DNA of 64,000 nt from Flectobacillus sp. (GTDB taxonomy: Bacteria; Bacteroidota; Bacteroidia; Cytophagales; Spirosomataceae): NCBI RefSeq assembly GCF_049240685.1, contig NZ_JBMLSD010000409.1, positions 32 through 64,031 of the forward strand, read 5' to 3'. Made by a program: the position numbers and the translations under genes. Shown here in pieces: positions 2,966 to 38,700 of the stretch. The notes under the pieces are model-generated. The model was not told where the DNA came from, did no database searches, and saw nothing but the letters and a program-made list of their open reading frames with translations. Position 1 is the stretch's first letter. Each line of letters begins with the position of its first letter.

Positions 2966-3045
2966 GCCTTTTTGATACATAAGTAAAATATTAGCATTGA
3001 TAATCAGAGTTTTACAAAATAGTAAATACTTAAATAAAAAAGAAT

Positions 3046-3324: not shown

Positions 3325-3657
3325 AAATACATTAGAGAGCACCTATGGATATTAGAATTATAGGTGTTTTTTTGATTTTAAGAGACGTTTACCACACTAT
3401 CTATATAAGTAATCATTTGAACCAAAAATAACGCCTTAAAATCGAAATATTAAAACTAAACATTTAGTTCACGGCCCTACTTGCTACAATTTAGTTTGAT
3501 TTTTGAAATTTTCCATTTTGACATTTTTATTCTTGGTCTACTTTTTTGAAAATTTTAACTTTAAAAAACAAATCATGATTTTATTTATTTTATCAATTAA
3601 ATATTTGATTGATTTAGGGGCCTCCTATTAAATTGATTTACAGGCAATTGCAAAGAG

Positions 3658-4006: not shown

Positions 4007-4061
4007 TCCTTAACTTTGTGTAAATGAGAGATTAAAAATTAATATTTTACAACTATTGCTT

Positions 4062-6538: not shown

Positions 6539-6543
6539 AAATT

Positions 6544-6709
6544 AAGTTACCTACTTACCTATTTACAAGTAATATTCTCATAACCAGTAAATTAATATAT
6601 TTAGGTAACTTTACAAGATAGTCATAATCCGTTCTTACCTACCTACATATAAATCTCATAAAGTTCTAATTATTAATAAGATACAATACATTAGGTAAGT
6701 AGGTAACTT
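6544..6709. promoter_or_regulatory. 18-bp perfect inverted repeat pair plus extra TTACCTA/TAGGTAA motifs upstream of the primase gene
   Basis: AAGTTACCTACTTACCTA (6544-6561) is the exact reverse complement of 6692-6709. Related copies lie at 6601-6612 (TTAGGTAACTTT) and 6634-6647 (CTTACCTACCTACA). Confidence 0.5.
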
Positions 6710-6731
6710 TAAAACTACAACTTTTAAAACT

Positions 6732-8976: not shown

Positions 8977-11900
8977 TCAATTTACATCAAATACCAAAGT
9001 ATATAATAGGTCTTGATTTAGCTTTTGCTGAATCAATAAATTGTCTATTCCACAAAGGGATGAAGAATTTGCATGTTTGTTATTTACAAACCAACCATGC
9101 TCAATACCAGCATCAGGTCTTATTGTAATCAAGGTCTTATGCTTGTTTCGAATCGACAAGAAACGATAGTGAGGAAGATGTTGGTCTAATTCAACATTGA
9201 CTGACTCAATACCACAATCCTTTGCTATTCTTTGAATAAAGAATTTACGGGAGTTTTCATCATTAAATTGCTCAGTAATATTTCCTTTGTTTTGTTCATA
9301 ATATGGAGCTTTCATTTGTTGCAATTGAACTGTCAACTCGGTTATCTCGAAATTTAATTTCTCTTTCATAGTATTTATAAATTGAACAAGCAACAAGCAT
9401 CCCAAGGGCTTCATAAGGTATCTGTCAGAATACGTAAGATGAACTTTTTCTCCTGCTAGAACTTGGGCAAGTTTATCTTGAACATCATCATTCAAACGTT
9501 CATGAAACATGTTGTAAAAATCTAACGAGTTAATATATTTACTAGGCGCTGGTATTTTTACTTCAAAAATGTTTCCAATCAAATCATCAAATTTTATATC
9601 ATAAATGGGAAGAGTCCACTGACTAAAAGCTTCCTGCTTGTATATATAATTGCTCCTCGAATTACCCCAGTCTGCATCTAATTGGGTATGGAAGTCGTTT
9701 GTAAAATAGTCATACAGTTGATTATTCACAAGCTTTACCCTTGCAATTTGCTGTAAGTTCCCAACACTGAAACTATCAATATAATTAAGTTGCGCCCATA
9801 CTCTTGTTTGAATAAGGGTAAGTTTATGCTCAAGAGATAATTGCATGGGATGACCACGAAAAACTAAATGAATAGAAATACCATTCAATTTCATACTATT
9901 TAGAAGTTGAAAATTATCAACATTCCAGTTATCTATGTTGTCATAGTCTACCAATAACCACACCTCTTGCATTTGTTTTTTACTCAGTAATCTTGCCCAA
10001 TCATTTATGATTGTCCCAATATTTTTTTTAGGTTGATTTGTTAATAACATTTCAACCTCGTAAGGTACCTTATTGTCAACAATACTAGACAACCATTCAA
10101 TAGCACTATGTCGATCTAATTTATCAATATAATACTGAGATTTACGGTCAATCAAGCATTTGGTACAAGCAGATTCACAATTACACCTTTTCAGAAAATC
10201 TAAAGCGTTATTACAAACATCCTCGAAATAGGTGGCAGACTGAGAAACATAGCCGGCACCTCCTTTGGCAGTATCAAAAAGAAAAATACTTGAATAACCA
10301 CGATATTTCTTTAGACCAAAATCAACTTCCTGATCTTCTATACCCAGAAATGTAGTAAGACTTTTCGAAATGGCTTGACCTAAGGAATATAGAGTGGCTT
10401 CATTATTGATAAGGTTCCCATTTGCATCCTTACACCTTATTTCAAAAAAATCAGTTTGGAAACGGCCAACCAATAAAACATTATTTCGAATAGCATATGG
10501 ATTATCATTTCCCTTACAAAGAGAATTATCTCTTTCGTTTTTCCCTCCCCTTAATCTTGTATGACCGTTCAATGAATTTTGATTTATATCCGCACGTCCA
10601 CATTCTAAACAAACAGAATATCCTTCGCCAGCTCCATAATTATAATAAAGTATTTCTGCATTTTCTTTACTATCCCTAAATTCAAAAACAGGATGAGTAT
10701 CATCACTCCAAGATTCAACACCAATTAGTAAAGGTTCAACATACTGAACATTTGAAAGTTCAGTAATCTCCCTTGTTTTATCTTCAAATAAGTCTACAGA
10801 GAAACCCGCAGGCTCGATTATTTCAGTGTATAAACTTTGAGAATTAAGTCCTTTTAGTGTGTCATTTTTACAGTCAGGGCACGTTCTTGAAATAGACTCG
10901 TTACTTACAATATGTTCAAAGCCACAGGCAGTACAGTGTTGTAATATTCGTTTTGTTGCCTCGCCGCCCCAGTTATTTTTTAATGAAATACCTGCAGATT
11001 TATAACTCCAACCATCAATTACTACCTTTGTACCAGGGGCATACTCTGAAAGTGCTCTAGTGATATGATAAGAAGGAAGTTGCTTGGGTTCATCAGCACT
11101 TCGCTTTAAATCCGTAATATTTATATTATTAAAATCAACTACTCCAGTTGGAATTCCTCCAGCAGGTAAAAACCCTTCTTCAGATAGATAGGATAATAGG
11201 TTTTTATGTAAAAATTGATTTTTCTGATAGTTAACAGCTTTGTATGCTGGAGAATCTTCGTTATATCCTTTAAGTTCTAAAAACTTCTTCAAAGAAGTAT
11301 CAAAATCGACCCTCTTTTGAAGAATAGTATTGACTAAAAATTCAAAGTTTGAATAAACTTTATTGATAATTGCCATTGTAGTATGATTACTCAAAGGGGT
11401 ATTCCTAATTATTTGTGCAATTGAATCTAACAATTCTACCGGAACACCTTCAAGTAGAAACTCCATCAATAATTGCGAAGCATTTGCTTGTTTTCCTGCT
11501 AAATTTATGAAGAAAAAACTTTCTATTGTTTCTTTAACATTAATGCCAGCTAGCTGATTTTGGATAAACTTTCCAAGCATAAAAGCATTAATATGGCGTT
11601 GTACTACTGCATTACTGCTAAAGGAAAGCATTGGAGGTGCTATCTTATGATTTAAGGCCCATTCAGGTTTAGCCATCACATTAGATCCTATTGGGTTTGC
11701 AGCACATATGGTGAAAGCAAGAGATTTATTTTCACCTCTTCTGCCTGCTCTTCCCGTTCTTTGTAAATAATTGGCTGGACTAGGTGGCACATTACTCATG
11801 ACAACAGCTGAAATACCGCCAATATCCACCCCCATTTCCATGGTGGTTGAACAGCTTAATATGTTTATTTTGCCGTCCTGAAATTTTGTTTCGAGGTCAT

Positions 11901-14900
11901 CTAATCTGGATTTTTGTTGCTGAGCTGAATGCTCTCCAGCTAAATACAATGGCTTAAAATTTATAATTCGTTCATGAAGGCTATTCCATAATCCTTTAGT
12001 TTTAAAAAATTTAACTTCGGAATTTGTATCAATCCATTGTAATGTAGGTTCTGTATTGTAATTGTTATCTTCATCCCTATTAAAAGGGTAATAAAACATT
12101 GGAAAATTGATAGAGTTTCCTACTTTGAACGCTCCAATATTTGATGCATTACCGTTAATCCAAGGTGAATAACCTCTAAAATTAGTATCAATAAGCCTTT
12201 TTTTGACCGGACACAGCCATAGCTTATCTGCTAATTCAAACGCAACTTTTTCTTCTAAATTTAGCTTATAGCCACCTTCGTTTCCATAAGCTGTTAAGAA
12301 ATTCCTCCTAATTGTTATCCACAATTGTTCGAGTAACGCATTAATTTGATCTTGAATTTCATTATCAATCGTATTTAGTTCATGATATCCAAGTCCAGCA
12401 CATATTAAAAGTACCAAACGGTTTGGCCTTACACGATTTCTATCGAATACTGGCCACTTAGAGACATTTGCAATTGGCGAATCACTCGGGTAAATAGCAA
12501 AACTTTTATGATTTGTTGAAGCCATTCCTCTCACACTAGGAGAAATAGAATAATAGAATTTATACCTAATTACATAATCTAGCGCAATTTTCACAAGACT
12601 TTTCCACTCATTGCTCTCAATTCCTAATCCAGATGCAATATCAGGAGTAGTCAAGTTATCTAAGTCGGGATAAATCACATTGACCATGCCTAAATTTTCC
12701 AAAGAGCGGTCTCTGGGTAACCTTCTGGCAAATTCATTGTAAAGGAGTGAATTTAAGTAATCTTTTCCCTGAGAAGATATATTACCGCCTATATTATGAT
12801 TGAATAAATTTGTAAATTCATTTTCACTACGCTCCAATATTTCCAGCATTTCCTTCCAAGTAATCCGACTTTGTTGTACACTCGGAGGTACCGAATTAAT
12901 TATAGCTTCATATTGCTCAATGTCAGCCTTTTTTTTATTAATAAGAATAGGGATTTTTATCGTCGGTAATTCTGCTTTTAATTTTTCTAATTCTTTGATA
13001 CAAGCAATTTTGTCCTCTTCATTTAATTGAGGAAATTGATTTTGTAACTCTATTCTTTCTTTACACAAAGAATGAAATACCTGCGATCTCAACCAGTAGG
13101 TTTCACTATCTATGTTAATGAGGGCTGATATTTTTGCCGTCCCTTGTCTGCTATCTGTAAAGGAAATGTATTTTTTCCCCTCCCAAAGCATTTCTTTACT
13201 AATTTGGTTTGCACTATTTGTTTGTTCAAGAATCAAATCTGACATCAGCCTATTTAGAAATGCTGCTGATAATCTAAAATGGAAAGGACGCTCAAGATTA
13301 CATCCACAATATGGACAACCTTCAGTATTAGGTACTTCAAAGAGAGGCCCTAAAGTATCAAAATTTAAGGTGCTATCAATATTGATTTTAACTGGTACAA
13401 GATTCTCAGAAATAAATGGTCTACCCTTTAACTGTTTGGCAAGAATAAATCTACTTGGTATAGGATTCATGCTTAAATTATCTTCATTATCCTCATCATT
13501 TTCATCATCTACCTGAAAAAAGTCATTACTTTGCTTAGAACTTTGTTTGACTACATTCCCCTCTTTTTCTCCTTCCATCATGTAGGTGCCACAAGTTTTA
13601 CAGGAAATTAATTCTAGCAATGGGTAACCACATTTGCACTGCTTTTTAGAAATAGTAGTAAGTGTGCCTATGATGTGTTCAGGGACATTTCGATGAATCG
13701 TGCAAGTAGGATTGGTACATGCATATATTCCACTTATATTTCTTGCAAAAAAATGTCCTCTGACTGGGAGAAAAGATTGACCATTATCAGAAATATCAGC
13801 TAAACTATCAATATATGCAAGCTGGTCAGAGCGATTAGGGAGCTTAGTAGTTTTTCCAATTACCTCTAAATTCAGACAAGTATTTTCGTATAGCTGCTTA
13901 CGTAAATTGAGGGCAATATCAGAATCCTCTATATCACTTTTATCCAGTAGGCTAGCGTCAAAACTTGGTAGTATTCTTTTCCCTTTAATAATTTCGATAT
14001 TCGATGTTTGAATACCACATAAATCAGCCATAAACTGCTTTAAGTAATCATCGTTTCCATCCCCAACTGTTGCCGAAGTTACTGCAAACCTTACAGTATT
14101 GATATCTACGTCAAAAGCATCGATAACTCTCCTAATCAGAAGAGCCATTTCTGTAGCTTTTGACCCCACTAAAGTATGAGCTTCATCTAACAAAATCCAC
14201 CTCAATTTTCCTTTTGAATTTTGAAGTAATTGGGTGTCCTTATCCCTAACCAGCATATATTCAAGCATAGTTGGATTTGTGAACAAGATTTGTGGGGTCT
14301 GTTCTCTTATGTTTTTCCTTGATATGATTTCAGGAAAAGCCTCATTTTGTTTTAGCTGCGGTACAGTTTCTGCAGTATTTCCATTGTACACGGCATATTT
14401 AATATTTCCTAATGCCTTACACCATGCATGCATACGCTTTTTTTGACTACCAATCAAAGCATTTAATGGATAAAGAAATATAGCATTAACACCTATCTCA
14501 TTTGGGCTATTGGTATAAATATCTTGTAAGACTGGTAACATAAAACATTCTGTTTTTCCAGAACCTGTACCAGTTGTAACTAAGATTGATTTCTTTTCAT
14601 CTATAGATGCTTTCCAACTACTTAACTGATGTAAATAAGGAAGCCTATCTGCTGAAAAACGATATTCTTCATTTTTTATGCTATCAAGTTTTTTGATAAA
14701 GTCAGGATTAAACATAAAACTCAATTGCCCAAACGTTTCTTGAGAAGGTTCCCAAGGGAACATATTTTGAAATACGGGCTTGGCTAATATTTTCTCATCC
14801 TCTTGGTTCAAAATATATTTAAGATAGGTCTGCATCTCGGCATCTCCTGTTGCCCAAAGCGATAGAACGGTATCGATAATTCTTTGTTCAGTACTAGTGT

Positions 14901-14922
14901 AAAATTTTCTAAAGTTCATCAT
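8977..14922 (-). CDS. druE: Giant SF2 DEAH-box helicase with DUF1998/MrfA-type zinc module and ~480-aa unknown C-terminal extension (DruE-like)
   Basis: 1981 aa. Walker A TGTGSGKT, motif II LLDEAH, motif III TSAT, and helicase-C MEMGVDIGG...QRTGRAGRRG. Cys clusters: CTNPTC..CKCGYP..CKTCG, CPYCGC, CTACG..CPDC, CLECG. DUF1998-type CNCESACTKCL...LDRHSA. Size and architecture fit Druantia DruE. Confidence 0.7.
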   Translation of the reverse strand: MMNFRKFYTSTEQRIIDTVLSLWATGDAEMQTYLKYILNQEDEKILAKPVFQNMFPWEPSQETFGQLSFMFNPDFIKKLDSIKNEEYRFSADRLPYLHQLSSWKASIDEKKSILVTTGTGSGKTECFMLPVLQDIYTNSPNEIGVNAIFLYPLNALIGSQKKRMHAWCKALGNIKYAVYNGNTAETVPQLKQNEAFPEIISRKNIREQTPQILFTNPTMLEYMLVRDKDTQLLQNSKGKLRWILLDEAHTLVGSKATEMALLIRRVIDAFDVDINTVRFAVTSATVGDGNDDYLKQFMADLCGIQTSNIEIIKGKRILPSFDASLLDKSDIEDSDIALNLRKQLYENTCLNLEVIGKTTKLPNRSDQLAYIDSLADISDNGQSFLPVRGHFFARNISGIYACTNPTCTIHRNVPEHIIGTLTTISKKQCKCGYPLLELISCKTCGTYMMEGEKEGNVVKQSSKQSNDFFQVDDENDEDNEDNLSMNPIPSRFILAKQLKGRPFISENLVPVKINIDSTLNFDTLGPLFEVPNTEGCPYCGCNLERPFHFRLSAAFLNRLMSDLILEQTNSANQISKEMLWEGKKYISFTDSRQGTAKISALINIDSETYWLRSQVFHSLCKERIELQNQFPQLNEEDKIACIKELEKLKAELPTIKIPILINKKKADIEQYEAIINSVPPSVQQSRITWKEMLEILERSENEFTNLFNHNIGGNISSQGKDYLNSLLYNEFARRLPRDRSLENLGMVNVIYPDLDNLTTPDIASGLGIESNEWKSLVKIALDYVIRYKFYYSISPSVRGMASTNHKSFAIYPSDSPIANVSKWPVFDRNRVRPNRLVLLICAGLGYHELNTIDNEIQDQINALLEQLWITIRRNFLTAYGNEGGYKLNLEEKVAFELADKLWLCPVKKRLIDTNFRGYSPWINGNASNIGAFKVGNSINFPMFYYPFNRDEDNNYNTEPTLQWIDTNSEVKFFKTKGLWNSLHERIINFKPLYLAGEHSAQQQKSRLDDLETKFQDGKINILSCSTTMEMGVDIGGISAVVMSNVPPSPANYLQRTGRAGRRGENKSLAFTICAANPIGSNVMAKPEWALNHKIAPPMLSFSSNAVVQRHINAFMLGKFIQNQLAGINVKETIESFFFINLAGKQANASQLLMEFLLEGVPVELLDSIAQIIRNTPLSNHTTMAIINKVYSNFEFLVNTILQKRVDFDTSLKKFLELKGYNEDSPAYKAVNYQKNQFLHKNLLSYLSEEGFLPAGGIPTGVVDFNNINITDLKRSADEPKQLPSYHITRALSEYAPGTKVVIDGWSYKSAGISLKNNWGGEATKRILQHCTACGFEHIVSNESISRTCPDCKNDTLKGLNSQSLYTEIIEPAGFSVDLFEDKTREITELSNVQYVEPLLIGVESWSDDTHPVFEFRDSKENAEILYYNYGAGEGYSVCLECGRADINQNSLNGHTRLRGGKNERDNSLCKGNDNPYAIRNNVLLVGRFQTDFFEIRCKDANGNLINNEATLYSLGQAISKSLTTFLGIEDQEVDFGLKKYRGYSSIFLFDTAKGGAGYVSQSATYFEDVCNNALDFLKRCNCESACTKCLIDRKSQYYIDKLDRHSAIEWLSSIVDNKVPYEVEMLLTNQPKKNIGTIINDWARLLSKKQMQEVWLLVDYDNIDNWNVDNFQLLNSMKLNGISIHLVFRGHPMQLSLEHKLTLIQTRVWAQLNYIDSFSVGNLQQIARVKLVNNQLYDYFTNDFHTQLDADWGNSRSNYIYKQEAFSQWTLPIYDIKFDDLIGNIFEVKIPAPSKYINSLDFYNMFHERLNDDVQDKLAQVLAGEKVHLTYSDRYLMKPLGCLLLVQFINTMKEKLNFEITELTVQLQQMKAPYYEQNKGNITEQFNDENSRKFFIQRIAKDCGIESVNVELDQHLPHYRFLSIRNKHKTLITIRPDAGIEHGWFVNNKHANSSSLCGIDNLLIQQKLNQDLLYTLVFDVN

Positions 14923-14937
14923 AAATAGGTTTTGTTT

Positions 14938-17900
14938 TTATAATATTCGATTGATAGTATAAGTAACTGCTAAATCATACCATTGATTATCAAGATTTTC
15001 ACAATAAATAATATTTCGTCTGATTTCATGATTATTCAGATGCCATAAATCAACGATTTTACCTCCATTAGGCAGTTCCGATTCATAAAGATTTAATTTT
15101 ACTAGAGCAATAGCTATAGGACACCTTGTCATTATTTTTAATTTTTTGTTATCAATAGGAATAATTGTTTTTCTGTTTTCGGGTATAAAAGGTCTCCAAT
15201 GCGGCAATTCATTTATCACTGATTCTCCTAGTCTTTGCCGCATACTATTCATGGAAGTATTTAAGTGAAATCCTTCTGGCATCTTCCAATCATTGTTGTT
15301 GAACATTAGAAATTTTCTATCAATAATTAGGCTTGATTTTTCAAGGATTAAACCGATAGCATCATTCCCATGATTATCAATTATACTATTAAAGTTTTTT
15401 TGAATCGATTCAAAAGAGCACCAATGAAATCTAAACCCTAACTCTTCTTCCATTTTCCCACAAGTGCGAATAAAATCTTCATTACTATGTGTATAGCAGA
15501 TCAGAAAGAAGAAAAGTTTAGCACAAATATCAGATGATGAACAAGCTGCTCTAATTATATCAAATGCAGAAAAAGGAAGATTAAACTGATTACAAATTTC
15601 AATATATCGATATAATTTTTGCCACTCCTGATCGTCTATCGAATCATCTGATAATTGACGGTAGAATTCAGTAATCCTAACTAACTTATTTTGATAAAGA
15701 ACTTCTGGTGCTGGTGGCGAAATTATATAATCCTGATTAATAGTTACATAGGTAGGGAGAATCTTACAATTGATATCTTTATTCGTATCAAAAACAATGA
15801 ACTCCTGATTACTAATGATTTCAGGAATATAAAAACTATCATTATCCCTGTCTAATTCAATAGAATTGATATCTTTAAGCTCGCAGTTCAAGGGCACTGC
15901 ATAGAGCAAGTAATTTGATTGAGGGGTATAATTAATATCTAAATCATCACTTTTTTTAAGATTAATAAGTAATTTTTTATCTTCCGATTGTCTCAAAGCC
16001 CCATCTTCATTTAGGTAAGAGAGACGAGTATTATATGCTTTAAACTGAATTCTTTTACCCTGCATTTCCATTACGACTATGTTACTAGATGCCATTGAGT
16101 CTGCTAATAGAAATAACTTTTGAATTATTGTATTAAAGTTTCTTAGTGGGATTAATCCAGATTGTAGCGTCTGACGAATAATCAGCTTTGGATACTGTTC
16201 ATTATAAAACTTAATGGTTTGATTTTCTCCACTTATGATTCGGTATCCATCTATGTTATTCAACAAAAAAATGTGGTTATTACCCACCACTTTATCCTCT
16301 TTATCAACTAACTCAATGCCCTTAGCTGGCAGTAGTATATCGAATAATAAATTTCCATATTTACTTTTTATATAGGCTTTGATGTATTTAGGTATTTGAT
16401 TTGTGTTAGTGATATTTACTACAATAGATTTATCCGTGTTAGAGATATTATAGCAGCTATTATTGTCAACTACTTCTAACATCAAATCATTATGATTAAA
16501 ATAGATTGCCGGTCTTAAAATATCAGAGCTGGAGAATCTCAATGTAGAGTCTCCAATATTGAATACTTTTTCGTACTCAGTAACTCCAGCGATACAAAAT
16601 TGCAGTTCTATAATTCCCACAGGAATCGAACCATTATATTCATGCCATACATACTCCCCCTTTCTTCGCCATTTTTTACTTATCTGATTATCACTTATTC
16701 TTTTTCCATCATCATTAAAAAAATAAATTTTAGGCAAAGCTTTCACAACTACCGTATTTGCTTTATGTAACCAATGGGGTCTCGTTTCTTGAATATACCA
16801 ATCAAAAGAGGTAGTATTTAGTTTGAAGTGAACAGACTCATTTTTACTAGTGATTAAGGTAGTAGCTTCTTGTATTTCAAAAAGATAAAATATTTTGTTT
16901 TCAATTATCAATTTCAGACTTTTCTCAGTACAATGACTAGGTTCAGAGGTCAAAACAAAGGCACTGTCCCCGTTATGATTTTTCTTGGATAGCATTATCC
17001 AACGATTTTCTTCAACTTGAACCCAAAGACTTGGAATGCTAGTATCTGGCAATACTTTTATCTGAGAAGAAATAAAATATTTTTTCCCAGAAGTATCTGC
17101 AAAATACAATTCTGGTAGGTGTTTGTTTCCGGGATTCCACAAAATGGGGGTCAAAGACGAATAATATTTTATAAAATCCCCCTTGATATCCTTTCGGTAA
17201 GTTGCCAATAAGGTTTCATCACAAAAGAAATTGTATGAAGCAGATAACTCATCATCGGAAATGAGGTTAATCATCTCAGCAAATAATGTGCTGTTTATTT
17301 TATCAGGTAAAACCGATTTTAATACAATATTGGCTTCCTCGGAAGACTTCAAATTCAATTCAAAAAATGTTTTTATTTTGGCTTGAGATTTTACTGCCTT
17401 TTCTATTTCCGTTTTGCGTTTTTTTAGGGTATCTACTAAATCTCTTTGTTGATTCAGCTCTAATAGGTCAAGTATTTCTCGACCTTCCTCTGTATCATCC
17501 CAAATGGCTCTCGAAATACTCAAGGCTGCTTCAAAAACAATTTCATTACGAGTAGACATTGGCAAATCCTTAATCACTTCATAATTATCTGCAATATCAC
17601 TGATAATAGCGGGTCTCTGTTCAATTACTTTCAATAAAAACTTACGGTATGCTGTTCCATATTTCAGCAAGTTTTTCAAAGGGATACCTCCTTGAAGTAA
17701 AAGTGTCCTAAAGTACAAGGTATTCTCTTTCTGAATCCATTTCCAGCCTAACTTTTTACCTCCTTCTTTTGCTTTTTGATATAAATCTTCTGCCGAAAAG
17801 CTTTGATCTGTAGAGTATAAGGAATTAAAAATCATATCCTTGGATGGCTTTCCTTCAACATAGGAAAATTTCCACCACAAGCCGAAGAGTATGGCACAAT

Positions 17901-18018
17901 CTCTTGAATCAATACTAGTTAATGAAGACTTTTCCCTAAAATATCTTTTAATACTTTCGAAAAAATCTTCATCAAAGTTTCTTAAACTTTTCCCTTCTAA
18001 ATTTGTATAGTAGTGCAT
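14938..18018 (-). CDS. 1026-aa protein of unknown function, upstream partner of the giant helicase (in the DruH position)
   Basis: Long uninterrupted ORF, 15 nt upstream of the helicase start on the same strand. No P-loop, nuclease, TM or signal motif is recognisable by eye. Confidence 0.55.
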   Translation of the reverse strand: MHYYTNLEGKSLRNFDEDFFESIKRYFREKSSLTSIDSRDCAILFGLWWKFSYVEGKPSKDMIFNSLYSTDQSFSAEDLYQKAKEGGKKLGWKWIQKENTLYFRTLLLQGGIPLKNLLKYGTAYRKFLLKVIEQRPAIISDIADNYEVIKDLPMSTRNEIVFEAALSISRAIWDDTEEGREILDLLELNQQRDLVDTLKKRKTEIEKAVKSQAKIKTFFELNLKSSEEANIVLKSVLPDKINSTLFAEMINLISDDELSASYNFFCDETLLATYRKDIKGDFIKYYSSLTPILWNPGNKHLPELYFADTSGKKYFISSQIKVLPDTSIPSLWVQVEENRWIMLSKKNHNGDSAFVLTSEPSHCTEKSLKLIIENKIFYLFEIQEATTLITSKNESVHFKLNTTSFDWYIQETRPHWLHKANTVVVKALPKIYFFNDDGKRISDNQISKKWRRKGEYVWHEYNGSIPVGIIELQFCIAGVTEYEKVFNIGDSTLRFSSSDILRPAIYFNHNDLMLEVVDNNSCYNISNTDKSIVVNITNTNQIPKYIKAYIKSKYGNLLFDILLPAKGIELVDKEDKVVGNNHIFLLNNIDGYRIISGENQTIKFYNEQYPKLIIRQTLQSGLIPLRNFNTIIQKLFLLADSMASSNIVVMEMQGKRIQFKAYNTRLSYLNEDGALRQSEDKKLLINLKKSDDLDINYTPQSNYLLYAVPLNCELKDINSIELDRDNDSFYIPEIISNQEFIVFDTNKDINCKILPTYVTINQDYIISPPAPEVLYQNKLVRITEFYRQLSDDSIDDQEWQKLYRYIEICNQFNLPFSAFDIIRAACSSSDICAKLFFFLICYTHSNEDFIRTCGKMEEELGFRFHWCSFESIQKNFNSIIDNHGNDAIGLILEKSSLIIDRKFLMFNNNDWKMPEGFHLNTSMNSMRQRLGESVINELPHWRPFIPENRKTIIPIDNKKLKIMTRCPIAIALVKLNLYESELPNGGKIVDLWHLNNHEIRRNIIYCENLDNQWYDLAVTYTINRIL

Positions 18019-18050
18019 ATCATGTAAGTATTAACTCTGTAAAACTATGT

Positions 18051-18081
18051 TTCAACTATGCAGTGGTGGTGCATAGTTGAA
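18051..18081 (-). terminator. Hairpin between the hsdR stop and the 1026-aa gene start
   Basis: TTCAACTATGC (18051-18061) pairs perfectly with GCATAGTTGAA (18071-18081), leaving a 9-nt loop. Confidence 0.5.
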
Positions 18082-18194
18082 ATTACTTTATAGGTATATT
18101 AAACTTACTTTGCACTAGTACTTACTCATAGTCGGACAAATCCAAGATTTTTAGTAGTCAATAAGCTAGTAAGTCTTCTTGCTAGTACCTATTT

Positions 18195-21100
18195 CTACGC
18201 CACTTCAGTATTCTGAATAATTGTTTCTAACAAAGTGATGATTTTAGCAGATGTTTGTTCATCGAAGACGCCCATTATGCCGCTTGTGTTTATATCAGTA
18301 AATGGTGAGTCGAATAGTTTTGCTGGTTCGATAATCCCTTTGACGTTCAGAAAATTGATAATAGTATCTATGAATCTAATTTGCTGTGAATTAAGCGTTT
18401 GATTATTCAATATCTCGCCAAATGCTAGTTTGGCAGCATTGATATCCAAGCCTACTATTCCTCTGATGAAGCGGCCTAGTGGTTGCTCTCCATACACTTT
18501 AATAAACTCTTCTCTAGTGCCTAAGTTTCCTTGTTCAAACAGTAGGTGCTCCAATGCGTTTAACTCGCTTTGGGTGATAGGCACATTGTTACGAAGCTTA
18601 TGAATCGTTAAGTTATTACTTTGAGATTTAAGATATTGCTCTACTTTACGCTTGTAGGTATCCAAATCATTAAAGTTATAAACCAATGGTTGCTCTTTGA
18701 TGCCAGATTCTATCACTTCATCTTGATAAGAGGAGTAATAAATGGGCGTTTTCTCCTTTTCCAAAAACTTCATCAATTCACGAAGTTCTAGCCTTACTTT
18801 TTCTAGATCAGGAATAGACACACGTTCCCAAAATGACTTTTCTTGAAGATCATGAATAAGCTCTTTTCGTTGTGCTACCGACGGGATTGTTAGCTTTTTG
18901 CTTAGCTTCTTGGCTGTTATTACCACATTTTGAATAATTCCAAGCTGTCTTTTCTCTCCCTTGAGTATGCTCAATTGCAAATCGAGCATAATGGCATCAA
19001 AACGTTTTGCTTGTTCATCTTGCTCTATTTCTGTAATCAATGGTGCTATGTGATCAAATATCTCTTTGATATTCAAATCGGTAAGAGTATTCCACTGACT
19101 AGCATCTTGATATTTCTCTACTATTTCCCAATGCTGACGTACTAGGAAACTTTGCATGTTGAGTGCTTGTACTTGCCTTACTAAATAGGATATTAATTCT
19201 TGAGCATATTTTTTTAACTCAGGAGCTTCTTGCGCTTCTAATAACAAAGAGAGTTTTAACCGTAATTCAAATAAGCGTTGACTCAAAGATTTGCCTGTTT
19301 CGGTTTCAAAACCTCTCGGGTTATCATTGAAGAACTCTATATTTTCGCAAAAGTCGAATATGACAAATTCCTTTTTATCTTCATCAACGCCAAATAAGTT
19401 TTTACAAAGACGGGTACCTCTACCAATCATTTGCCAGTACTTTGTACGACTTCTGATAGGCTTAAAAAATACCAAGTTACACACTTCTGGCACGTCAATG
19501 CCTGTATCGAGCATATCAACTGATACCGCAATTTGTGGCATTTTGGCTTTGTCTTTAAACTTGTTTAAGAGGTCATATTTATATTCCTCCTGATAGTCTA
19601 TAACTTTCAGAAAATCACCCTTATACTCTGGATATTGCTTATTAAAACGTTCTTCGATAAACTTGGCGTGCAGGTGCGATCTGGCAAAAATAATGCTTTT
19701 TGCAAGTTTGTCTCCACCTTCTACTTTGATACCGTTTTGCATCAAATGTCCAATAACTTTATCAACTGTATCGGTATTGAATAACCAGGTGTTAAGAGCT
19801 GCGGCATCTATTTCTTCAGGAAAGTCTCCTGTCAATGGGTTACTAAATTGCTCTTCGTACATCAGCTTTTCGGCTTCACTCAACTCTGCATATTTAATGC
19901 CTTTTCGCTGAAACTTAATAGGTACTGAAATAGCTTTAGGTGGTACCAAAAACTGGTCATTTACTGCTTGTTCCAGTTCGTAGGCGTAGGTTGGGTTATT
20001 GGGTTCCATATCAAACAACCCATAAGTATCTTTATCACCATGCGAGCGTGGTGTTGCAGTTAAACCAATTCTGATACCGTCAAAATACTTAAATATATGC
20101 TTATAGCGATTATAGACCGAACGGTGAATTTCATCAAAAATAATCAGGTCAAAATGACCGATGCCATACATACGATTGTCGCCGTCGGCTTCGCCATCAA
20201 TCATGTTAATCATGGTTTGATAGGTCGAAAATACGATTCGGCTGCTGTCATCTTCTTTCTCTTTTGTTAAATCTACCGTTGGAAGATGGGGCAAATAATC
20301 ATTCAAATTGACTTTTGCTTGATGTACAAGAGCATTTCTATCTGCCAAAAACAATACTCTTTTTATCCAGCCTGCTTTACTCAAAAAATCAATAATAGAG
20401 GCCGAAACCCTTGTTTTACCTGTACCTGTTGCCATTACAAGCAAGGCTTCTCGCTGATTTCTCTCTAATACTTCAGCAACTTTTCGGATAGCTTCTTGCT
20501 GATAATAACGATCCGTAATAGCTGAGTTAATCGTTTGATTAACAAGACTCTTTCTTAACGTTCTTCGTTGTACGAGTGCCTGTAGTTCGTCCTTGGTATA
20601 GAAACCATAAACCTCTCTTGGGGCATAGTTGAGGTCGTCCCAAAGCCATGTCTGATAACCATTTGAATAGAAAATAACTGGGCGTTGACCATATACTTGC
20701 TGCAAACCATCGGCATAGCATTTGGCTTGATGCTGGCCTACTCGTGGGTCACGTTTGGTACGTTTGGCTTCTACTACGGCCAGAGGTTTACCATCGTCGC
20801 CCCATAAAACGTAATCAACAAAGCCATTACCCAAACTACCGTCGGCTTGGGGCATACAGTTGTGTACTGCAAATTCTCGTACATTAGTACCAGACGGATT
20901 CCAACCTGATTCTGATAGTAATAAATCAATATAGCGCTGGCGTGTAAAAGCTTCATCAGGGTCAACTGCTGGTATAGCCGTAATAATATTTTGCTCCTTG
21001 ATGGCCTTGATACGCTCTAGTTCGGCTTCGAGTTGTTGGAGTTTGCTCTGTTGAGCATGATATGCTTGTTCGAGTTGCTTGAGCTCTTCCTTACTTTTGT

Positions 21101-21533
21101 CTTTTCCGAGTTCTTTGGGCACTAAGGCTTCATCGAAAGGCTTAATGCTGATTCTTTTTTCGTTATATACCTGAACTACCCATGCCAAAAATCCATGCAA
21201 AAGCTTTAGTCCATGCAAGGCATCTTCGGGCTTTAGCCTAATATTCGTATGTACGGCATCGTTACCTTGCTTTCTGATAAGATTGAGCTGCTTAAACTGG
21301 TTGGGAGCTACCAACTGTTTGAATGCTGCATCATGTATCAATGAACTTAGCGAGGTATCATGTGGAAGTACCAAGTCTGGATCATGCTGATAGATCCATC
21401 TTACCCACTCTTCTAAGCTTTTGCGACAAAGCATTGCACAGTAAAGAGGGGCATGATACACATGTTGCTCAGCTTCTTGCGGAGCAGCGGCTAAAGAAGC
21501 CCAAGGAGTAGATATAAACGAAAAATTACTCAT
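18195..21533 (-). CDS. hsdR: Type I restriction enzyme R subunit (DUF4145-like N-terminus, PD-(D/E)xK nuclease, SF2 motor, EcoEI-type C-terminal domain)
   Basis: Nuclease motif FVDYVLW...AVVEAKR. Walker A MATGTGKT, DEIH box (IFDEIHR), LTATP, QMIGRGTR. The ATGA overlaps the hsdS stop. Confidence 0.9.
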   Translation of the reverse strand: MSNFSFISTPWASLAAAPQEAEQHVYHAPLYCAMLCRKSLEEWVRWIYQHDPDLVLPHDTSLSSLIHDAAFKQLVAPNQFKQLNLIRKQGNDAVHTNIRLKPEDALHGLKLLHGFLAWVVQVYNEKRISIKPFDEALVPKELGKDKSKEELKQLEQAYHAQQSKLQQLEAELERIKAIKEQNIITAIPAVDPDEAFTRQRYIDLLLSESGWNPSGTNVREFAVHNCMPQADGSLGNGFVDYVLWGDDGKPLAVVEAKRTKRDPRVGQHQAKCYADGLQQVYGQRPVIFYSNGYQTWLWDDLNYAPREVYGFYTKDELQALVQRRTLRKSLVNQTINSAITDRYYQQEAIRKVAEVLERNQREALLVMATGTGKTRVSASIIDFLSKAGWIKRVLFLADRNALVHQAKVNLNDYLPHLPTVDLTKEKEDDSSRIVFSTYQTMINMIDGEADGDNRMYGIGHFDLIIFDEIHRSVYNRYKHIFKYFDGIRIGLTATPRSHGDKDTYGLFDMEPNNPTYAYELEQAVNDQFLVPPKAISVPIKFQRKGIKYAELSEAEKLMYEEQFSNPLTGDFPEEIDAAALNTWLFNTDTVDKVIGHLMQNGIKVEGGDKLAKSIIFARSHLHAKFIEERFNKQYPEYKGDFLKVIDYQEEYKYDLLNKFKDKAKMPQIAVSVDMLDTGIDVPEVCNLVFFKPIRSRTKYWQMIGRGTRLCKNLFGVDEDKKEFVIFDFCENIEFFNDNPRGFETETGKSLSQRLFELRLKLSLLLEAQEAPELKKYAQELISYLVRQVQALNMQSFLVRQHWEIVEKYQDASQWNTLTDLNIKEIFDHIAPLITEIEQDEQAKRFDAIMLDLQLSILKGEKRQLGIIQNVVITAKKLSKKLTIPSVAQRKELIHDLQEKSFWERVSIPDLEKVRLELRELMKFLEKEKTPIYYSSYQDEVIESGIKEQPLVYNFNDLDTYKRKVEQYLKSQSNNLTIHKLRNNVPITQSELNALEHLLFEQGNLGTREEFIKVYGEQPLGRFIRGIVGLDINAAKLAFGEILNNQTLNSQQIRFIDTIINFLNVKGIIEPAKLFDSPFTDINTSGIMGVFDEQTSAKIITLLETIIQNTEVA

Positions 21534-22675
21534 GCTACTAATTCTCCATTAAATGCTTTTTGTAATAGGGAGTTGAAAAGATTTTCACTTTTAAAGGTTA
21601 TATCCTGACATTGACACTCTATATTTTTCAATACTTCAAGAAAAACGTTTTGTTGTATTATTGGCGGTACAGGGATTACTAATCCTTCTAACACTCCTGT
21701 ATTCATATGAGTAAAGCCATTATCAGAACCAGTCCGAAGCCTTCCGATTTTTTTTCCAAAATACTTCATAAGAGATGTAAAATAGAAAGGATTTATTTGG
21801 TTAGAATCAAGACTAATCTTAATAAGATTTGTACTAATAATTGATTTTGGAATGTCAGTATCAACAACGCACATTTTACCTACAGTTCCAGCCCTAGATA
21901 TAATTATATCTCCATTTTGTGTGGAATATGACTTTAAATCTTGATATTTTTTATCATCTATAAATAAATTACATTGCTTAGAAAACTTGTAATTTATGAT
22001 ATTATCCATGTTCCAAACAGGGATTCCAAAAGTTACAAACTCTTCTCGTTTTAAAGCACTCCCAAATGGTCCACATTTAACAGGAGACTTAAATAGATCC
22101 CCCAACTTCTTCACCTCCCAACCTTTTTCATTTTTAACTGGGTCGCCGAACATGTCGATAAAAATAGCTTGAGCCAACTCATCGTATTTTTTAAGTAGGG
22201 CTTCATCTTTTCGGCGAAGGGCATCCGCTGTATCCAATATCTCAGCAATCCGCTTTTGTATCGGTAGCGGTGGGAGTGGGATTTGAATTGAATCTAATGC
22301 AGATTTTGTTAATTTTCCTCTTGTTGAACCTGTAATAAATTGTGTTAAGTCTTTAGCATTAAGATAATACATCAAATATTTTAAGTCTGACTTACCGTTT
22401 GATGAAAGGACATGAGCGTGATTATTAACCCAACATTTTTCTGAAAAATACACCACACATTTTTGATTTTCGCCCCAACTACCCCCATCTTCTGCAATAC
22501 AAATTATTTCTTCATCAAATAAATATTCATCTACATAATCCATTATATTATTAGCTCCAATATATGGGTACAGTTTTTTCTTAGATATTTTATTTCTCTC
22601 TTGCTCATTTAAGGGCTTTCTCCTATTATCTAAATTAATAGTAATGTCCTTGATTTTAACTTTCTCCCACATCAT
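21530..22675 (-). CDS. hsdS: Type I R-M specificity subunit
   Basis: Two target-recognition halves are separated by the conserved spacer LPPLPIQKRIAEILDTADALRRK. A repeat of it lies at the C-terminus (PVPPIIQQNVF...LLQKAF). Confidence 0.85.
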   Translation of the reverse strand: MMWEKVKIKDITINLDNRRKPLNEQERNKISKKKLYPYIGANNIMDYVDEYLFDEEIICIAEDGGSWGENQKCVVYFSEKCWVNNHAHVLSSNGKSDLKYLMYYLNAKDLTQFITGSTRGKLTKSALDSIQIPLPPLPIQKRIAEILDTADALRRKDEALLKKYDELAQAIFIDMFGDPVKNEKGWEVKKLGDLFKSPVKCGPFGSALKREEFVTFGIPVWNMDNIINYKFSKQCNLFIDDKKYQDLKSYSTQNGDIIISRAGTVGKMCVVDTDIPKSIISTNLIKISLDSNQINPFYFTSLMKYFGKKIGRLRTGSDNGFTHMNTGVLEGLVIPVPPIIQQNVFLEVLKNIECQCQDITFKSENLFNSLLQKAFNGELVA

Positions 22676-22687
22676 ACTTCTAACTAT

Positions 22688-23815
22688 TTAATGATTATAT
22701 TTTGCAATTTCGTTTTTGATAAAAGCCTGTAGGGCTTCTTTGGGTGGTAGTTCTAACAAATATTTAGAAACAAACAGGTGGTTGTCCATGCCTGCGGTGG
22801 CGTATTCTACCAGTGTATGATTTTTATTAGTTACCAACAAAATCCCTACCGTTGGGTTATCGTTGGCTTGCATCACCTGTGCTTTATAGTAGTTTACGTA
22901 GGTGTTTAGTTGTCCAATATTGTGGTGGCTAAACTCTTCTACTTTTAGCTCTACCAGCACATGACATTTGAGAATTCGGTGGTAAAAAACGAGGTCAATA
23001 AAAAAGTACTCGTCCCCAATCAAAATCTTTTTTTGGCGTGCCTCCAAACAAAAGCCATGCCCCATTTCGAGCATAAAATCTTGTAGGTTTTCGAGCAAAG
23101 CAGCTTCCAAATCACTTTCTTCTACGGCATCTTGGTGTTTCAAACCCAAAAACTCAAAAGCATATACCGATTTTACAATCTCTGTAAGATTCGTAGTTTC
23201 TGCTTTGGCGTTAGTTATGGCGCTAAGTTTTTCGGGTTTTGCACTCATATTAGACCGTTCGTAATAGAGGCTATTTATTTGGCGCTTTAGTTCTCGGACA
23301 CTCCAATTACCTTTTATACACTCAAGTTCATAGAAGCTGCGTCTGATGGGGTCATTGATTTTAATTAATAATTCAAAATGTGTATAAGATATTTTACTAG
23401 TAATAAGCTCTCCGTTAAGCTGATAAGCCGATAGTTCAAATTCGGAGGTCGCTGACCTCCGAATTTGTTGAGTGCTGGGCAAAACAATTCCTTTTTCAGA
23501 ATCATAGCTTGCTAAACTCCGAAATGATGGACTTTCAACCACAGTCTGAATCTGAGGGTATATTTGGTAAAATAGCCTAAAGTTTCTGAATGTACGTTCA
23601 TCTAAGCCCTTAATATGCTTACATTTTTGTGCTAAATTTACCAGAAGTTTTTCGCCATATTTTGCACGCTCTTCCCCATTTTGTTCAAATTCCACAATGT
23701 AATAACCAATCAGCCAATTACGTAATGTAAGGCCAATATTAATAGCTTTTGAGGCTTGCTCTTGAAAATACTGATGAGTTTGTTGGATATTATCAACTAA
23801 TAATTCAAATTTCAT
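22688..23815 (-). CDS. DUF1016/YhcG-like PD-(D/E)xK nuclease-fold protein embedded in the hsd operon
   Basis: The C-terminal FFIDLVFYHRILKCHVLVELKVEEFSHHNIGQLNTYVNYY is the characteristic DUF1016 nuclease core. Its start overlaps the hsdM stop by 4 nt. Confidence 0.75.
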   Translation of the reverse strand: MKFELLVDNIQQTHQYFQEQASKAINIGLTLRNWLIGYYIVEFEQNGEERAKYGEKLLVNLAQKCKHIKGLDERTFRNFRLFYQIYPQIQTVVESPSFRSLASYDSEKGIVLPSTQQIRRSATSEFELSAYQLNGELITSKISYTHFELLIKINDPIRRSFYELECIKGNWSVRELKRQINSLYYERSNMSAKPEKLSAITNAKAETTNLTEIVKSVYAFEFLGLKHQDAVEESDLEAALLENLQDFMLEMGHGFCLEARQKKILIGDEYFFIDLVFYHRILKCHVLVELKVEEFSHHNIGQLNTYVNYYKAQVMQANDNPTVGILLVTNKNHTLVEYATAGMDNHLFVSKYLLELPPKEALQAFIKNEIAKYNH

Positions 23816-25275: not shown

Positions 25276-25302
25276 GAGGTAATTTTTAAATGAATTTTTT
25301 TG

Positions 25303-25310
25303 CAAATTTA
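25303..25310 (-). promoter_or_regulatory. Bacteroidota -7 promoter box candidate (TAAATTTG) for hsdM
   Basis: The minus-strand sequence TAAATTTG matches TAnnTTTG, about 28 nt upstream of the ATG at 25275. No clear -33 TTTG was found. Confidence 0.4.
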
Positions 25311-26692: not shown

Positions 26693-26912
26693 ACAAAAAA
26701 TAATCAATCCCTAAATAGTACCTATGTAAGCCATAATTTAAGAAATATTATTTCCAAATCTATCCTAGTAATTTGAGAAAGGGTAAAATGTTCAAAAATC
26801 AATAGTTTCAAATTTCAGAAACTATGTTTATTGGTACAAGTATTCTATACAACTAATAGCATTTACTGTAGGTATTTTTATACAATGTTATTTTGTACCT
26901 CTTAAAGAGCGT

Positions 26913-35972: not shown

Positions 35973-36041
35973 AAAAAAGCATTTATTGTGTAAATATAAT
36001 ATTTGTATTTTATCTACACAATAAATATCATTTTTTATATC

Positions 36042-38695: not shown

Positions 38696-38700
38696 AATAT

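Follow-up and report, generated by a model that had tools for sequence, protein, structure and literature searches.

The closest described relatives of the locus analysed here are the Druantia III-A systems of Escherichia coli ATCC 8739/EDL933 (DruH, PDB 9tud; DruE, PDB 9tu7-9tuc) and Pseudomonas aeruginosa. In both, druH is followed by a co-directional druE, DruHE alone is sufficient, and DruE combines RecA1/RecA2, a large insertion, OB/Zn, an MZB Cys4 module and two PLD-like domains. Five studies published in 2026 supply structures and biochemistry, and the mechanism, which the first-pass annotation of this DNA had still given as unknown, is largely worked out. The published roles of DruH disagree: (i) a 3' exonuclease, (ii) an ssDNA binder that has no nuclease activity and that ATP inhibits, and (iii) a dimer-dependent nickase/sensor. 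Similarly, the PLD domains of DruE are essential in P. aeruginosa but dispensable in E. coli. Defence by Druantia III is abortive in M. smegmatis, and regulation was not addressed in the mechanistic studies consulted. Among more distant systems, Druantia III-B likewise pairs a YprA-like helicase with DruH, but its DruE lacks the PLD domains that our DruE has; in ARMADA a YprA-like helicase is also central, but with Vsr-type nucleases and other partners.

The locus that we describe lies in a 64-kb window (the whole stretch of Flectobacillus DNA analysed, 64,000 nt). It consists of two giant genes, which are both on the minus strand, so that druH precedes druE:

14938..18018, minus strand: druH, first gene of the pair, encoding a divergent YjiT/DruH-family protein of 1026 aa.
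8977..14922, minus strand: druE, encoding a Druantia type III-A YprA/MrfA-like SF2 helicase of 1981 aa with a PLD-like C-terminus.

Between the stop of druH and the start of druE lie 15 nt (AAACAAAACCTATTT), and at the ~33% G+C of this DNA ORFs as long as these are far beyond chance; in coordinates, strand, length, spacing and co-orientation the pair had been described exactly in the first-pass annotation. Two plus-strand ORFs internal to druE and druH (13112-13516 and 17286-17555) are taken as shadow ORFs. We suggest, with a probability of roughly 0.87, that the two genes form a Druantia type III-A anti-phage system of a Bacteroidota lineage, complete and apparently intact, on a plasmid-like element and within a defence array that has a WYL-domain regulator at its head and is split by a type I R-M operon. 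The two genes are thus an ordinary further example of a known two-gene system. The identity of both proteins, the intact helicase, zinc and PLD motifs, the synteny and the genomic context are known from the present analysis. The two-gene content typical of Druantia III was found at the locus: PADLOC scans of the neighbours gave R-M, PDC-S02, WYL and weak PDC-M matches, and none to DruA-D, DruM, DruF or DruG near druH-druE.

With the E. coli and P. aeruginosa systems the window shares gene order, DruE domain content, the DruH layout, and the PLD2 DRY/HxR/D-x-G signature and MZB cysteines of DruE. It differs from them in its Bacteroidota host, its plasmid-like element, and its neighbours, i.e. 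WYL and type I R-M genes rather than Zorya II or ARMADA II. Window DruE is ~31% identical to EcDruE over aa 2-1614, with the PLD region left unaligned by tblastn; window DruH is ~15% identical to EcDruH and ~90 aa shorter (1026 vs 1119 aa).

Other Bacteroidota loci, including those on Chryseobacterium balustinum plasmid NZ_CP033935.1 and in Aquirufa esocilacus, have the gene order of the window and a DruE lineage that is 45-60% identical and full length with PLD. In C. balustinum the order is WYL-DruH-DruE-DUF2130-type I R-M, so that WYL and R-M genes are linked on a plasmid as in the window, but with the R-M genes after druE rather than between WYL and druH. The closest species representative is 46% (DruH) and 60% (DruE) identical, and the distribution is patchy. 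The survey of homologues covered 63 GTDB loci, 59 of which have room downstream and could be assessed: a druH homologue lies immediately upstream of druE in 58 of these 59 Bacteroidota loci, at a distance of 2-70 nt in 56 and within ~0.5 kb in 2 more. This adjacency also holds in the clade of the window DruH itself (L067, L068).

Upstream of druH we find the following genes:

25679..26707, minus strand: WYL-WCX domain protein (Pfam WYL and WCX; PADLOC WYL).
18195..25305, minus strand: hsdM-yhcG(PDDEXK)-hsdS-hsdR type I R-M operon, between the WYL gene and druH.
23812-25305, minus strand: hsdM (PADLOC MTase_I, 611.9 bits; Pfam).
22688-23815, minus strand: YhcG/DUF1016 PDDEXK gene, inserted in the R-M operon (PADLOC PDC-S02, 401.3 bits).
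21530-22675, minus strand: hsdS (PADLOC Specificity_I, 222.3 bits).
18195-21533, minus strand: hsdR (PADLOC REase_I, 598.7 bits).

The type I R-M operon, which had been placed directly before the pair and was found there by PADLOC and Pfam with hsdM, hsdS and hsdR, is a neighbouring defence module outside Druantia proper. The WYL-WCX protein is probably a transcriptional regulator at the head of the defence array, and may control druHE; the PDB gave no sequence match for it that would place it with BrxR/CapW. In 36 of the 63 GTDB loci the gene directly upstream of druH is a WYL homologue, and in 9 more one lies in the vicinity. In Bacteroidota loci other defence modules sometimes sit between the WYL gene and druH; cargo found there elsewhere comprises M.S-fusion methyltransferase pairs, and PDC-S26 and AAA_15 ATPase pairs.

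The spacer between hsdR and druH is 176 nt long and contains a hairpin:

18050..18082, no strand assigned: 13-nt perfect inverted repeat TTTCAACTATGCA/TGCATAGTTGAAA with a 7-nt loop, 32 nt upstream of the druH ATG.

This repeat may act either as an operator or as a terminator-like hairpin. A role as operator for the WYL protein finds no support: the window has no second copy beyond chance, no counterpart is conserved upstream of druH in ten related loci, and the repeat is not kept in loci with WYL next to druH. In a related locus, L031, an analogous repeat of 16 nt comes after hsdR. The plasmid backbone proposed earlier is consistent with two Rep_3 + ParA modules that flank the region, and the closest Rep (48% identical) is on Emticicia oligotrophica plasmid NC_018743.1. 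No megablast match to 8977-18018 or 27000-51000 was found in PLSDB, which places the source replicon outside PLSDB, and the 64-kb window contains no tRNA genes and thus no sign of integration at a tRNA site.

How far does the functional unit extend? Alternatively to a two-gene system, DruHE could be one arm of a co-regulated island (WYL, type I R-M with the YhcG nuclease, and DruHE) in which ends or ssDNA tails generated by the R-M system feed DruHE. The seven genes share one orientation; in most Bacteroidota loci druH has a WYL homologue in front of it; ~20 of 63 loci carry, within 10 kb, an hsdM homologue that is at least 44% identical; and the order hsdR-druH-druE recurs in L031. However, DruHE is sufficient by itself in E. 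coli and P. aeruginosa; the R-M genes vary in position and type and are absent from many loci, including that of the closest relative (L004); clustering of defence genes is generic; and the hairpin-bearing spacer splits hsdR from druH. We therefore consider this larger unit unlikely and favor the two-gene Druantia III-A system. A regulatory variant of the Druantia III-A reading appears possible, if doubtful: in Bacteroidota, Druantia III-A would be the fixed terminal module of a WYL-regulated island, the WYL-druH spacer would be an insertion slot for defence cargo, and the divergence of the window DruH clade would reflect an Ig-like sensor retargeted to other phage cues.

The helicase matches PADLOC DruE3 (PDLC00036) with 2149.9 bits, aa 2-1979 aligning to positions 3-2021 of the 2023 in the profile, compared to 536.8, 310.6 and 296.2 bits for DruE1, DruE2 and DruE4. 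By phmmer it matches PDB 9tu7_Y with E 5.8e-206 (aa 8-1870, extending into the PLD region) and the MrfA structure PDB 6znp with E 2.1e-23; Pfam recognizes DEAD, Helicase_C and MZB. Its parts are:

14062..14631, minus strand: RecA1 (aa 98-287; Pfam DEAD, E 4.5e-20; Walker A, DEAH, TSAT).
13300..13719, minus strand: Cys clusters C402/C407, C429/C431, C441/C444 and C536/C539/C541, in the insertion between RecA1 and the RecA2 core.
11734..11979, minus strand: RecA2 core (aa 982-1063; Pfam Helicase_C, E 2.2e-14; motif VI).
10501..10935, minus strand: CxxC pairs C1330/C1333, C1348/C1351 and C1438/C1441 plus C1469, at the position of the OB-fold/Zn-binding (OBZ) domain.
10153..10380, minus strand: MZB/DUF1998 zinc module (aa 1515-1590; Pfam MZB, E 1.1e-12, 48.9 bits vs a cut-off of 24.2).
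8980..10089, minus strand: tandem PLD-like domains (aa ~1612-1981; AF2 model and Foldseek; conserved residues).

Walker A (GTGSGKT, aa 118-124, K123, nt 14551-14571), the DEAH box (LLDEAH, aa 244-249, E247, nt 14176-14193) and motif VI (QRTGRAGRRG, aa 1054-1063) are all intact, and TSAT is at aa 282-285; accessory domains of ~690 aa separate RecA1 from the RecA2 core. The Cys-cluster motifs CTNPTC (402-407), CKCGYP (429-434) and CKTCG (441-445) lie where the double Zn-binding domain (dZBD), with two zinc-binding motifs, is found in EcDruE, and the clusters from C402 to C541 may correspond to it; the OBZ designation is likewise borrowed from the published EcDruE domain names and would apply by analogy. 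C1438, C1441 and C1469 are kept in 48-50 of 51 aligned DruE proteins. In the MZB module, CNCESACTKC spans aa 1580-1589 and LDRHSA aa 1602-1607; C1580, C1582, C1586 and C1589 correspond to EcDruE C1681, C1683, C1687 and C1690, are kept in 50-51 of 51 DruE proteins, and are the positions at which the EcDruE mutants C1681A/C1683A and C1687A/C1690A lose defence. The helicase, Cys-cluster and DUF1998 motifs quoted in the first-pass annotation are thus all present in this protein. A locus in decay or already inactive, a remnant like yjiT/yjiV in E. coli K-12, is brought to mind by a related locus in which druE is split into three ORFs (P0008, L069); given that the window ORFs are uninterrupted and of full family length, with catalytic and zinc motifs intact, we regard this as very improbable.

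The C-terminus of DruE, described earlier as about 480 residues without a recognizable motif, comprises ~390 aa after MZB (1591-1981) and is a tandem PLD-like module, which defines subtype III-A and is absent in III-B. The AF2 model of aa 1560-1981 (pLDDT 80.6) revealed a PLD fold by Foldseek, the PDB matches including two-domain PLD proteins (PLD3, Tdp1, PLD2), single PLD domains (MITD1, TMt 0.59; Nuc, BfiI, Zucchini) and also PPK. Conserved in this region are W1666, Y1831, D1833-R1834-Y1835, H1918-x-R1920 and D1937-x-G1939, which are kept in 45-51 of 51 aligned DruE proteins, E. coli and P. luteola included; D1833-R1834-Y1835 and H1918-x-R1920 are kept in 50-51 of 51 (D1947/Y1949 and H2037/R2039 in E. 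coli), and the sequence YSDRYL aligns to EcDruE. From their sequence, D1833/R1834/Y1835, H1918 and R1920 are a putative PLD2 active site that would correspond to PaDruE D1917/R1918/Y1919, H1999 and R2001, a mapping inferred because it was made by motif and spacing (85 vs 82 residues), for these residues.

Homology of the 1026-aa protein to DruH emerges from profiles and intermediates. Matches to two independent canonical DruH HMMs are collinear but below the curated cut-offs (PADLOC DruH3 PDLC00047, E 4.6e-5, 19.4 bits; NCBIfam NF038336 YjiT_fam, E 3.6e-6, 25.2 bits vs a cut-off of 150), and automatic pipelines would therefore not call the protein. In a library of 1.84 billion proteins, the profile of its own clade, A2, reaches P0180 (E 5.6e-48) and P0140 (E 2.6e-65), which match PADLOC DruH3 PDLC00045 over their full length with 854.6 and 329.8 bits. 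The protein has hundreds of relatives, with a continuous chain of full-length homologues to canonical DruH3, and the wider family profile, A1, matches PDB 9tud_A "DruH" collinearly (E 6.8e-14). Plasmids of E. coli and P. luteola supplied the canonical DruH/DruE references. The hhalign match between A2 and a 693-aa fragment of EcDruH is collinear but not significant alone (E 0.059), and with this fragment as query of a large protein database only one protein, a truncated one, was found. Only P0001-P0016 reach 42% identity or more to the window DruH, and the main Bacteroidota clade shares 27-30% with it; the rarer subclade of the window DruH differs from that clade in escaping the PADLOC DruH models. 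By sequence, we conclude that the protein is a DruH of the YjiT / STY4851-ECs_5259 family, from a rarer, divergent subclade.

The first-pass annotation had called it an orphan partner without recognizable motif and, were it unrelated to DruH, a new helicase-partner pairing. The lack of a Pfam match stands, as do searches of the PDB in which phmmer gave noise only and A2 nothing at E<=10, and the close clade members P0005, P0008, P0015 and P0067 have no PADLOC match; orphan status does not stand. Against an unrelated partner argue the homologue chain, the collinear matches to two DruH HMMs and the family-profile match to the PDB DruH, together with the same length class, three-part architecture and place immediately upstream of druE; DruH is also reported to diverge far more rapidly than its partner DruE. 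A new pairing is thus scarcely tenable, and the Druantia type III assignment holds: DruE by its full-length DruE3 match, and DruH by profile and transitive homology, architecture and strict synteny.

The AF2 model of DruH (pLDDT 84.9; helices 1-207, strands 216-760, helices 771-1025) divides it into three parts:

17398..18018, minus strand: N-terminal alpha-helical domain (aa 1-207; AF2 secondary structure; WW..Y..GKPSK and TLYFRTLLLQGGIP motifs).
15739..17373, minus strand: central beta-rich Ig-like domain array (aa 216-760; AF2, all-beta segments).
14941..15708, minus strand: C-terminal alpha-helical domain (aa 771-1026; AF2 model).

This layout is the published DruH layout, the comparison being with published descriptions as the Foldseek PDB library ends on 2026-04-08, before 9tud. 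The top PDB matches are tandem Ig arrays (SbsC, neurofascin, contactin, NCAM, titin) with low TM-scores; matches of the same kind are reported for PaDruH. W48, W49, Y53, S59, F103, T105, Q109, G110 and P113 are invariant N-terminal columns, and the N-terminal motif aligns to EcDruH GYLHTLACEGGLPIR; P. luteola DruH numbering differs from that of the PaDruH N-terminal cleft residues R22, K28, E64 and E220. Conserved C-terminal columns are W799, Y805, D820, W866, P967, W992, R1000, R1001 and N1002, with R1000 and R1001 forming a basic patch after the shared W992 (Ec W1056). The EcDruH ssDNA/ATP pocket (Y670, N672, H689, Y733, R1031, H1062, R1064, K1067) falls in columns not recognizably conserved in window or P. 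luteola DruH, in a MAFFT alignment of 57 DruH proteins that is unreliable at ~15% identity. In PaDruH the C-terminal helical domain contacts the DruE stalk (Loeff et al.), and by analogy that of the window DruH may do the same.

Bacillus subtilis MrfA/MrfB (YprA/YprB) resembles the pair in its SF2 3'-5' core with N, OB and MZB/DUF1998 domains and in having a DNA-end-processing partner, but lacks stalk/insertion and PLD domains and sits in a housekeeping context, and MrfB, a DEDDh-type exonuclease, has no relationship to DruH. A housekeeping MrfA/YprA-type repair helicase with an accessory protein would share the helicase core and MZB domain, but 1981 aa compared to ~750 aa in MrfA, DruE-specific insertions and a PLD module, no MrfB-like exonuclease partner, and patchy distribution on a plasmid-like element amid R-M, WYL and toxin genes leave this reading a negligible chance.

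For the Druantia III-A system, the most likely mechanism is extrapolated in every biochemical step from the E. coli and P. aeruginosa work. DruE would be a YprA/MrfA-like helicase with ATP-driven 3'-to-5' activity, kept as an (auto-inhibited) dimer; it would engage ssDNA/duplex junctions of the invader, for example at forks, at tailed ends and in intermediates of replication or recombination. DruH would dock on the DruE stalk via its C-terminal helical domain and bind or trim ssDNA 3' ends and/or sense a phage component. DruE would then unwind the foreign DNA and degrade the same DNA via its C-terminal PLD-like module, and the outcome would be direct, non-abortive clearance.

The significance of the locus is modest, and in other respects it is a defence island of the ordinary kind, carried by a mobile element. 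At ~31% (DruE) and ~15% (DruH) identity to E. coli, the window pair is a distant natural variant in which the PLD2 signature and MZB cysteines are still present, and being distant and yet so conserved it is useful for the dispute on whether PLD domains and nuclease activity of DruH are essential. A recent census relying on PADLOC found Druantia III "predominantly in Proteobacteria"; because the whole DruH subclade lies below PADLOC/NCBIfam thresholds, the system is probably under-called in Bacteroidota. The recurrent upstream WYL gene provides a testable lead on Druantia III regulation. If the terminal-module scheme with its WYL-regulated island were true, surveys requiring both PADLOC matches would give too low a count of Druantia III outside Proteobacteria, and DruHE would be expressed on induction instead of constitutively.

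An ORF scan agrees with the first-pass annotation in finding two large, co-oriented ORFs that are 15 nt apart and follow a type I restriction-modification (R-M) operon, and the motifs quoted there were all found where it had placed them. Because the G+C content of the region is only ~33%, uninterrupted open frames of 3 and 6 kb are not attributable to chance. The two genes and their upstream neighbours are:

8977-14922, minus strand: druE, 1981 aa
14938-18018, minus strand: druH, 1026 aa
18195-21533, minus strand: hsdR, directly upstream of druH
21530-22675, minus strand: hsdS, upstream of hsdR
22688-23815, minus strand: YhcG/DUF1016 PDDEXK gene, between hsdM and hsdS
23812-25305, minus strand: hsdM, start of the type I R-M operon
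25679-26707, minus strand: WYL-WCX protein, head of the co-oriented array

The nested YhcG/DUF1016 nuclease gene corresponds to the PADLOC candidate system PDC-S02 (401 bits), and HsdR combines an N-terminal DUF4145 domain with a C-terminal EcoEI_R_C domain and additionally matches the candidate PDC-M16A over aa 2-199. The 176-nt hsdR-druH spacer holds an inverted repeat of two perfect 13-nt arms around a 7-nt loop (18050-18082), 32 nt 5' of the druH start, which may act as a terminator or as an operator; a comparable 16-nt repeat lies 3' of hsdR at another locus with a DruH relative (L031, 9811-9847).

The identity of the helicase is clear. DruE matches the PADLOC profile for Druantia type III DruE, PDLC00036, end to end (2149.9 bits, aa 2-1979 against 3-2021 of 2023), with a score far exceeding those of the type I, II and IV DruE models. 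In a PDB sequence search the closest solved structure is EcDruE from E. coli (9tu7, a 2108-aa DEAD/DEAH helicase; E 5.8e-206, aa 8-1870), with 9wae (a 1970-aa helicase) and MrfA/YprA (6znp) next. Pfam places a DEAD domain at aa 98-287, Helicase_C at aa 982-1063 and MZB at aa 1515-1590. The RecA1 to RecA2 core is interrupted by a ~690-residue insertion bearing Cys clusters; in EcDruE this position is occupied by the double Zn-binding, duplex-binding and dimerisation/stalk domains. When 51 DruE sequences are aligned (48 from Bacteroidota loci plus those of the window, E. coli and P. luteola), EcDruE C1681/C1683/C1687/C1690, the mutation of which abolishes defence, fall into the columns of the window's MZB cysteines C1580/C1582/C1586/C1589.

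Subtype III-A is defined by two C-terminal PLD-like domains in DruE and III-B by their absence. The first-pass annotation had described the C-terminus as ~480 aa free of motifs; the region following MZB comprises ~390 aa and is PLD-like by structure model, Foldseek and conserved residues. Alignments to DruE obtained by tblastn from proteobacterial plasmids end at around residue 1614, and the phmmer alignment to 9tu7 extends to residue 1870; YSDRYL aligns exactly. W1666, Y1831, D1833, Y1835, H1918-x-R1920 and D1937-x-G1939 are kept in the Bacteroidota, E. coli and P. luteola proteins of the 51-sequence alignment and, judged by motif and spacing, would be equivalent to the D1917/R1918/Y1919 and H1999/R2001 pocket of PaDruE from P. 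aeruginosa. An AlphaFold2 model of aa 1560-1981 (pLDDT 80.6) retrieved PLD-family folds in Foldseek, the matches being PLD3, Tdp1, PLD2, polyphosphate kinase, MITD1, Nuc, BfiI and Zucchini; MITD1 is also the nearest fold given by Loeff et al. The conserved residues and the PLD-fold matches together therefore assign DruE to the III-A type.

The 1026-aa protein had been labelled an orphan and, should it prove unrelated to DruH, a member of a new helicase-partner pairing. Taken singly it gave no match in a Pfam scan or a PDB sequence search, and its direct profile matches are weak: PADLOC PDLC00047 (19.4 bits at E 4.6e-5, aa 332-596 aligned to 391-674 of 1118) and NCBIfam NF038336, YjiT_fam or 'STY4851/ECs_5259 family' (25.2 bits where the cut-off is 150, E 3.6e-6, aa 368-674 aligned to 409-739 of 1090). 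These two matches are independent of each other and collinear. A database search yielded 55 relatives of ~1000 aa, from Bacteroidota in all cases that carry names, that form a close clade (P0001-P0016, at least 42% identity) and a larger clade (P0017-P0055, 27-30% identity over 96-100% of the length, E 1e-111 to 1e-85). Members of the larger clade match the PADLOC DruH3 profile PDLC00045 over almost their full length (E 1e-31 to 1e-56); members of the close clade gave no score with it, and a profile of the close clade alone gave no match in the PDB. A profile of 54 family sequences matched EcDruH (9tud_A, a PDB entry named 'DruH') with E 6.8e-14; the alignment falls into two collinear stretches and takes in a common TLYFRTLLLQGG(I/L)P / GYLHTLACEGGLPIR motif. 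Searched against 1.84 billion protein representatives, the close-clade profile found 304 proteins at E<=1e-3 and reached both P0180 (E 5.6e-48) and P0140 (E 2.6e-65), which are full-length members of DruH3 (854.6 and 329.8 bits), so that the homology chain to DruH3 is complete without hanging on a sole intermediate. The orphan label is thereby withdrawn, and the new pairing is rejected on this chain, the 9tud_A match and synteny with druE.

PF27201, which is found on the main DruH clade of Bacteroidota, and PF27116 (YjiV_N), found on DruE, are newer Pfam families outside the release scanned; precomputed labels record PF27201 for most of P0017-P0055 and for none of P0001-P0016. In four relatives, P0119 (1345 aa), P0158 (1280 aa), P0165 (1661 aa) and P0167 (1560 aa), the DruH-like region is preceded by 300-630 additional N-terminal residues; these proteins may be fusions or mis-called genes.

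A neighbourhood survey of homologues, proposed at the first pass, covered one genome per GTDB species and gave 63 loci, nearly all from Bacteroidota. A DruE homologue (33-60% identical, mostly full length) begins after the DruH homologue in 58 of the 59 loci having downstream sequence, with a gap of 2-70 nt in 56 loci and ~0.5 kb in two distant ones, in agreement with the published strict pairing of DruH with DruE. The window's own clade keeps this pairing in Aquirufa esocilacus (L004) and at both P0005 loci (L067, L068). The P0008 locus of a Bacteroidetes MAG (L069, 13032-19002), in which druH is intact and druE is split into ORFs of 449, 121 and 1361 aa, exemplifies decay of the pair. DruH is reported to evolve much faster than DruE, and our survey data are compatible with this.

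Of the 63 loci, 36 have a WYL homologue 104-320 nt 5' of druH, 5 further ones have it 0.8-4.3 kb 5' of druH, and 4 have it 3' of druE; it is also present on a Chryseobacterium balustinum plasmid. Where the regulator gene and druH are apart, further defence genes lie between them: the window has type I R-M with YhcG there, L015 and L019 have M.S-fusion methyltransferase pairs, L038 has PDC-S26, and L067 has an AAA_15 NsnB/AriA-like ATPase pair. We therefore suggest that the WYL-druH gap may be an insertion slot within a putatively WYL-controlled island. Type I R-M systems have been reported as enriched near Druantia III, and WYL regulators heading defence islands are a general phenomenon (BrxR family, PMC9122601); our literature search found no paper connecting WYL with Druantia III.

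The setting is plasmid-like, with two distinct replication and partition modules:

2281-5021: ParA and Rep_3 initiator, first module
35004-37415: ParA and Rep_3 initiator, second module

Finding both within 64 kb would fit a multi-replicon or cointegrate plasmid. The nearest match to the larger Rep is the Rep of Emticicia oligotrophica plasmid NC_018743.1 (48% identity), a similarity that points to a putative Cytophagales-type plasmid. The same stretch carries a VapE-like protein with a Zn-ribbon/DUF6371 protein and an adjacent IS256-family (Mutator) transposase (5318-7748, plus strand, and 968-2062, minus strand). VapE-like and DUF6371-type primase/helicase-like pairs are typical of mobile elements. 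At 31873-33203 (minus strand) a 109-aa ORF precedes the gene of a HipA-like kinase (HipA_C, E 4.4e-39); the two weakly match the PADLOC candidate pair PDC-M03A/B and could represent a toxin-antitoxin pair or a candidate defence pair. A GntR/FCD regulator with a SusC/SusD-type TonB-dependent receptor pair (37985-43876) is cargo for polysaccharide utilisation; it confirms that the host belongs to Bacteroidota.

The AlphaFold2 model of DruH (pLDDT 84.9, pTM 0.64) consists of helices (1-207), an all-beta region (216-760) and helices (771-1025), and Foldseek retrieved tandem Ig arrays, among them neurofascin, contactin, NCAM and titin. Such matches are likewise reported for PaDruH, a likeness by description, the PDB set searched predating 9tud.

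The premise of the first pass that the mechanism of Druantia III is still unknown is outdated, published biochemistry on the E. coli and P. aeruginosa proteins having addressed it. In the studied homologues DruE forms a dimer and has 3'-5' helicase activity, which is switched on by ssDNA/duplex junctions; PaDruE is in addition an ATP-dependent PLD nuclease, the auto-inhibition of which is lifted once DruH and forked DNA turn the dimer into a 1:1 complex in which the DruH C-terminal domain contacts the DruE stalk. The PLD domains are essential in P. aeruginosa and dispensable in E. coli. DruH has been described as (i) a 3'-5' exonuclease, (ii) an ssDNA binder that has no nuclease activity and is inhibited by ATP, and (iii) a dimer-dependent, phage-sensing nickase. 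By analogy with these homologues, from which every step is taken, the window pair would act in the same manner; its proteins retain all elements for the helicase-nuclease model, and the EcDruH nucleobase pocket is not mappable.

The full-length DruE match, the DruH homology chain and synteny support the original reading of a Druantia III DruH-DruE system. The locus encodes a genuine Druantia III-A pair, the DruH of which is unusually divergent, and lies on a plasmid-like element within a WYL-headed defence array.
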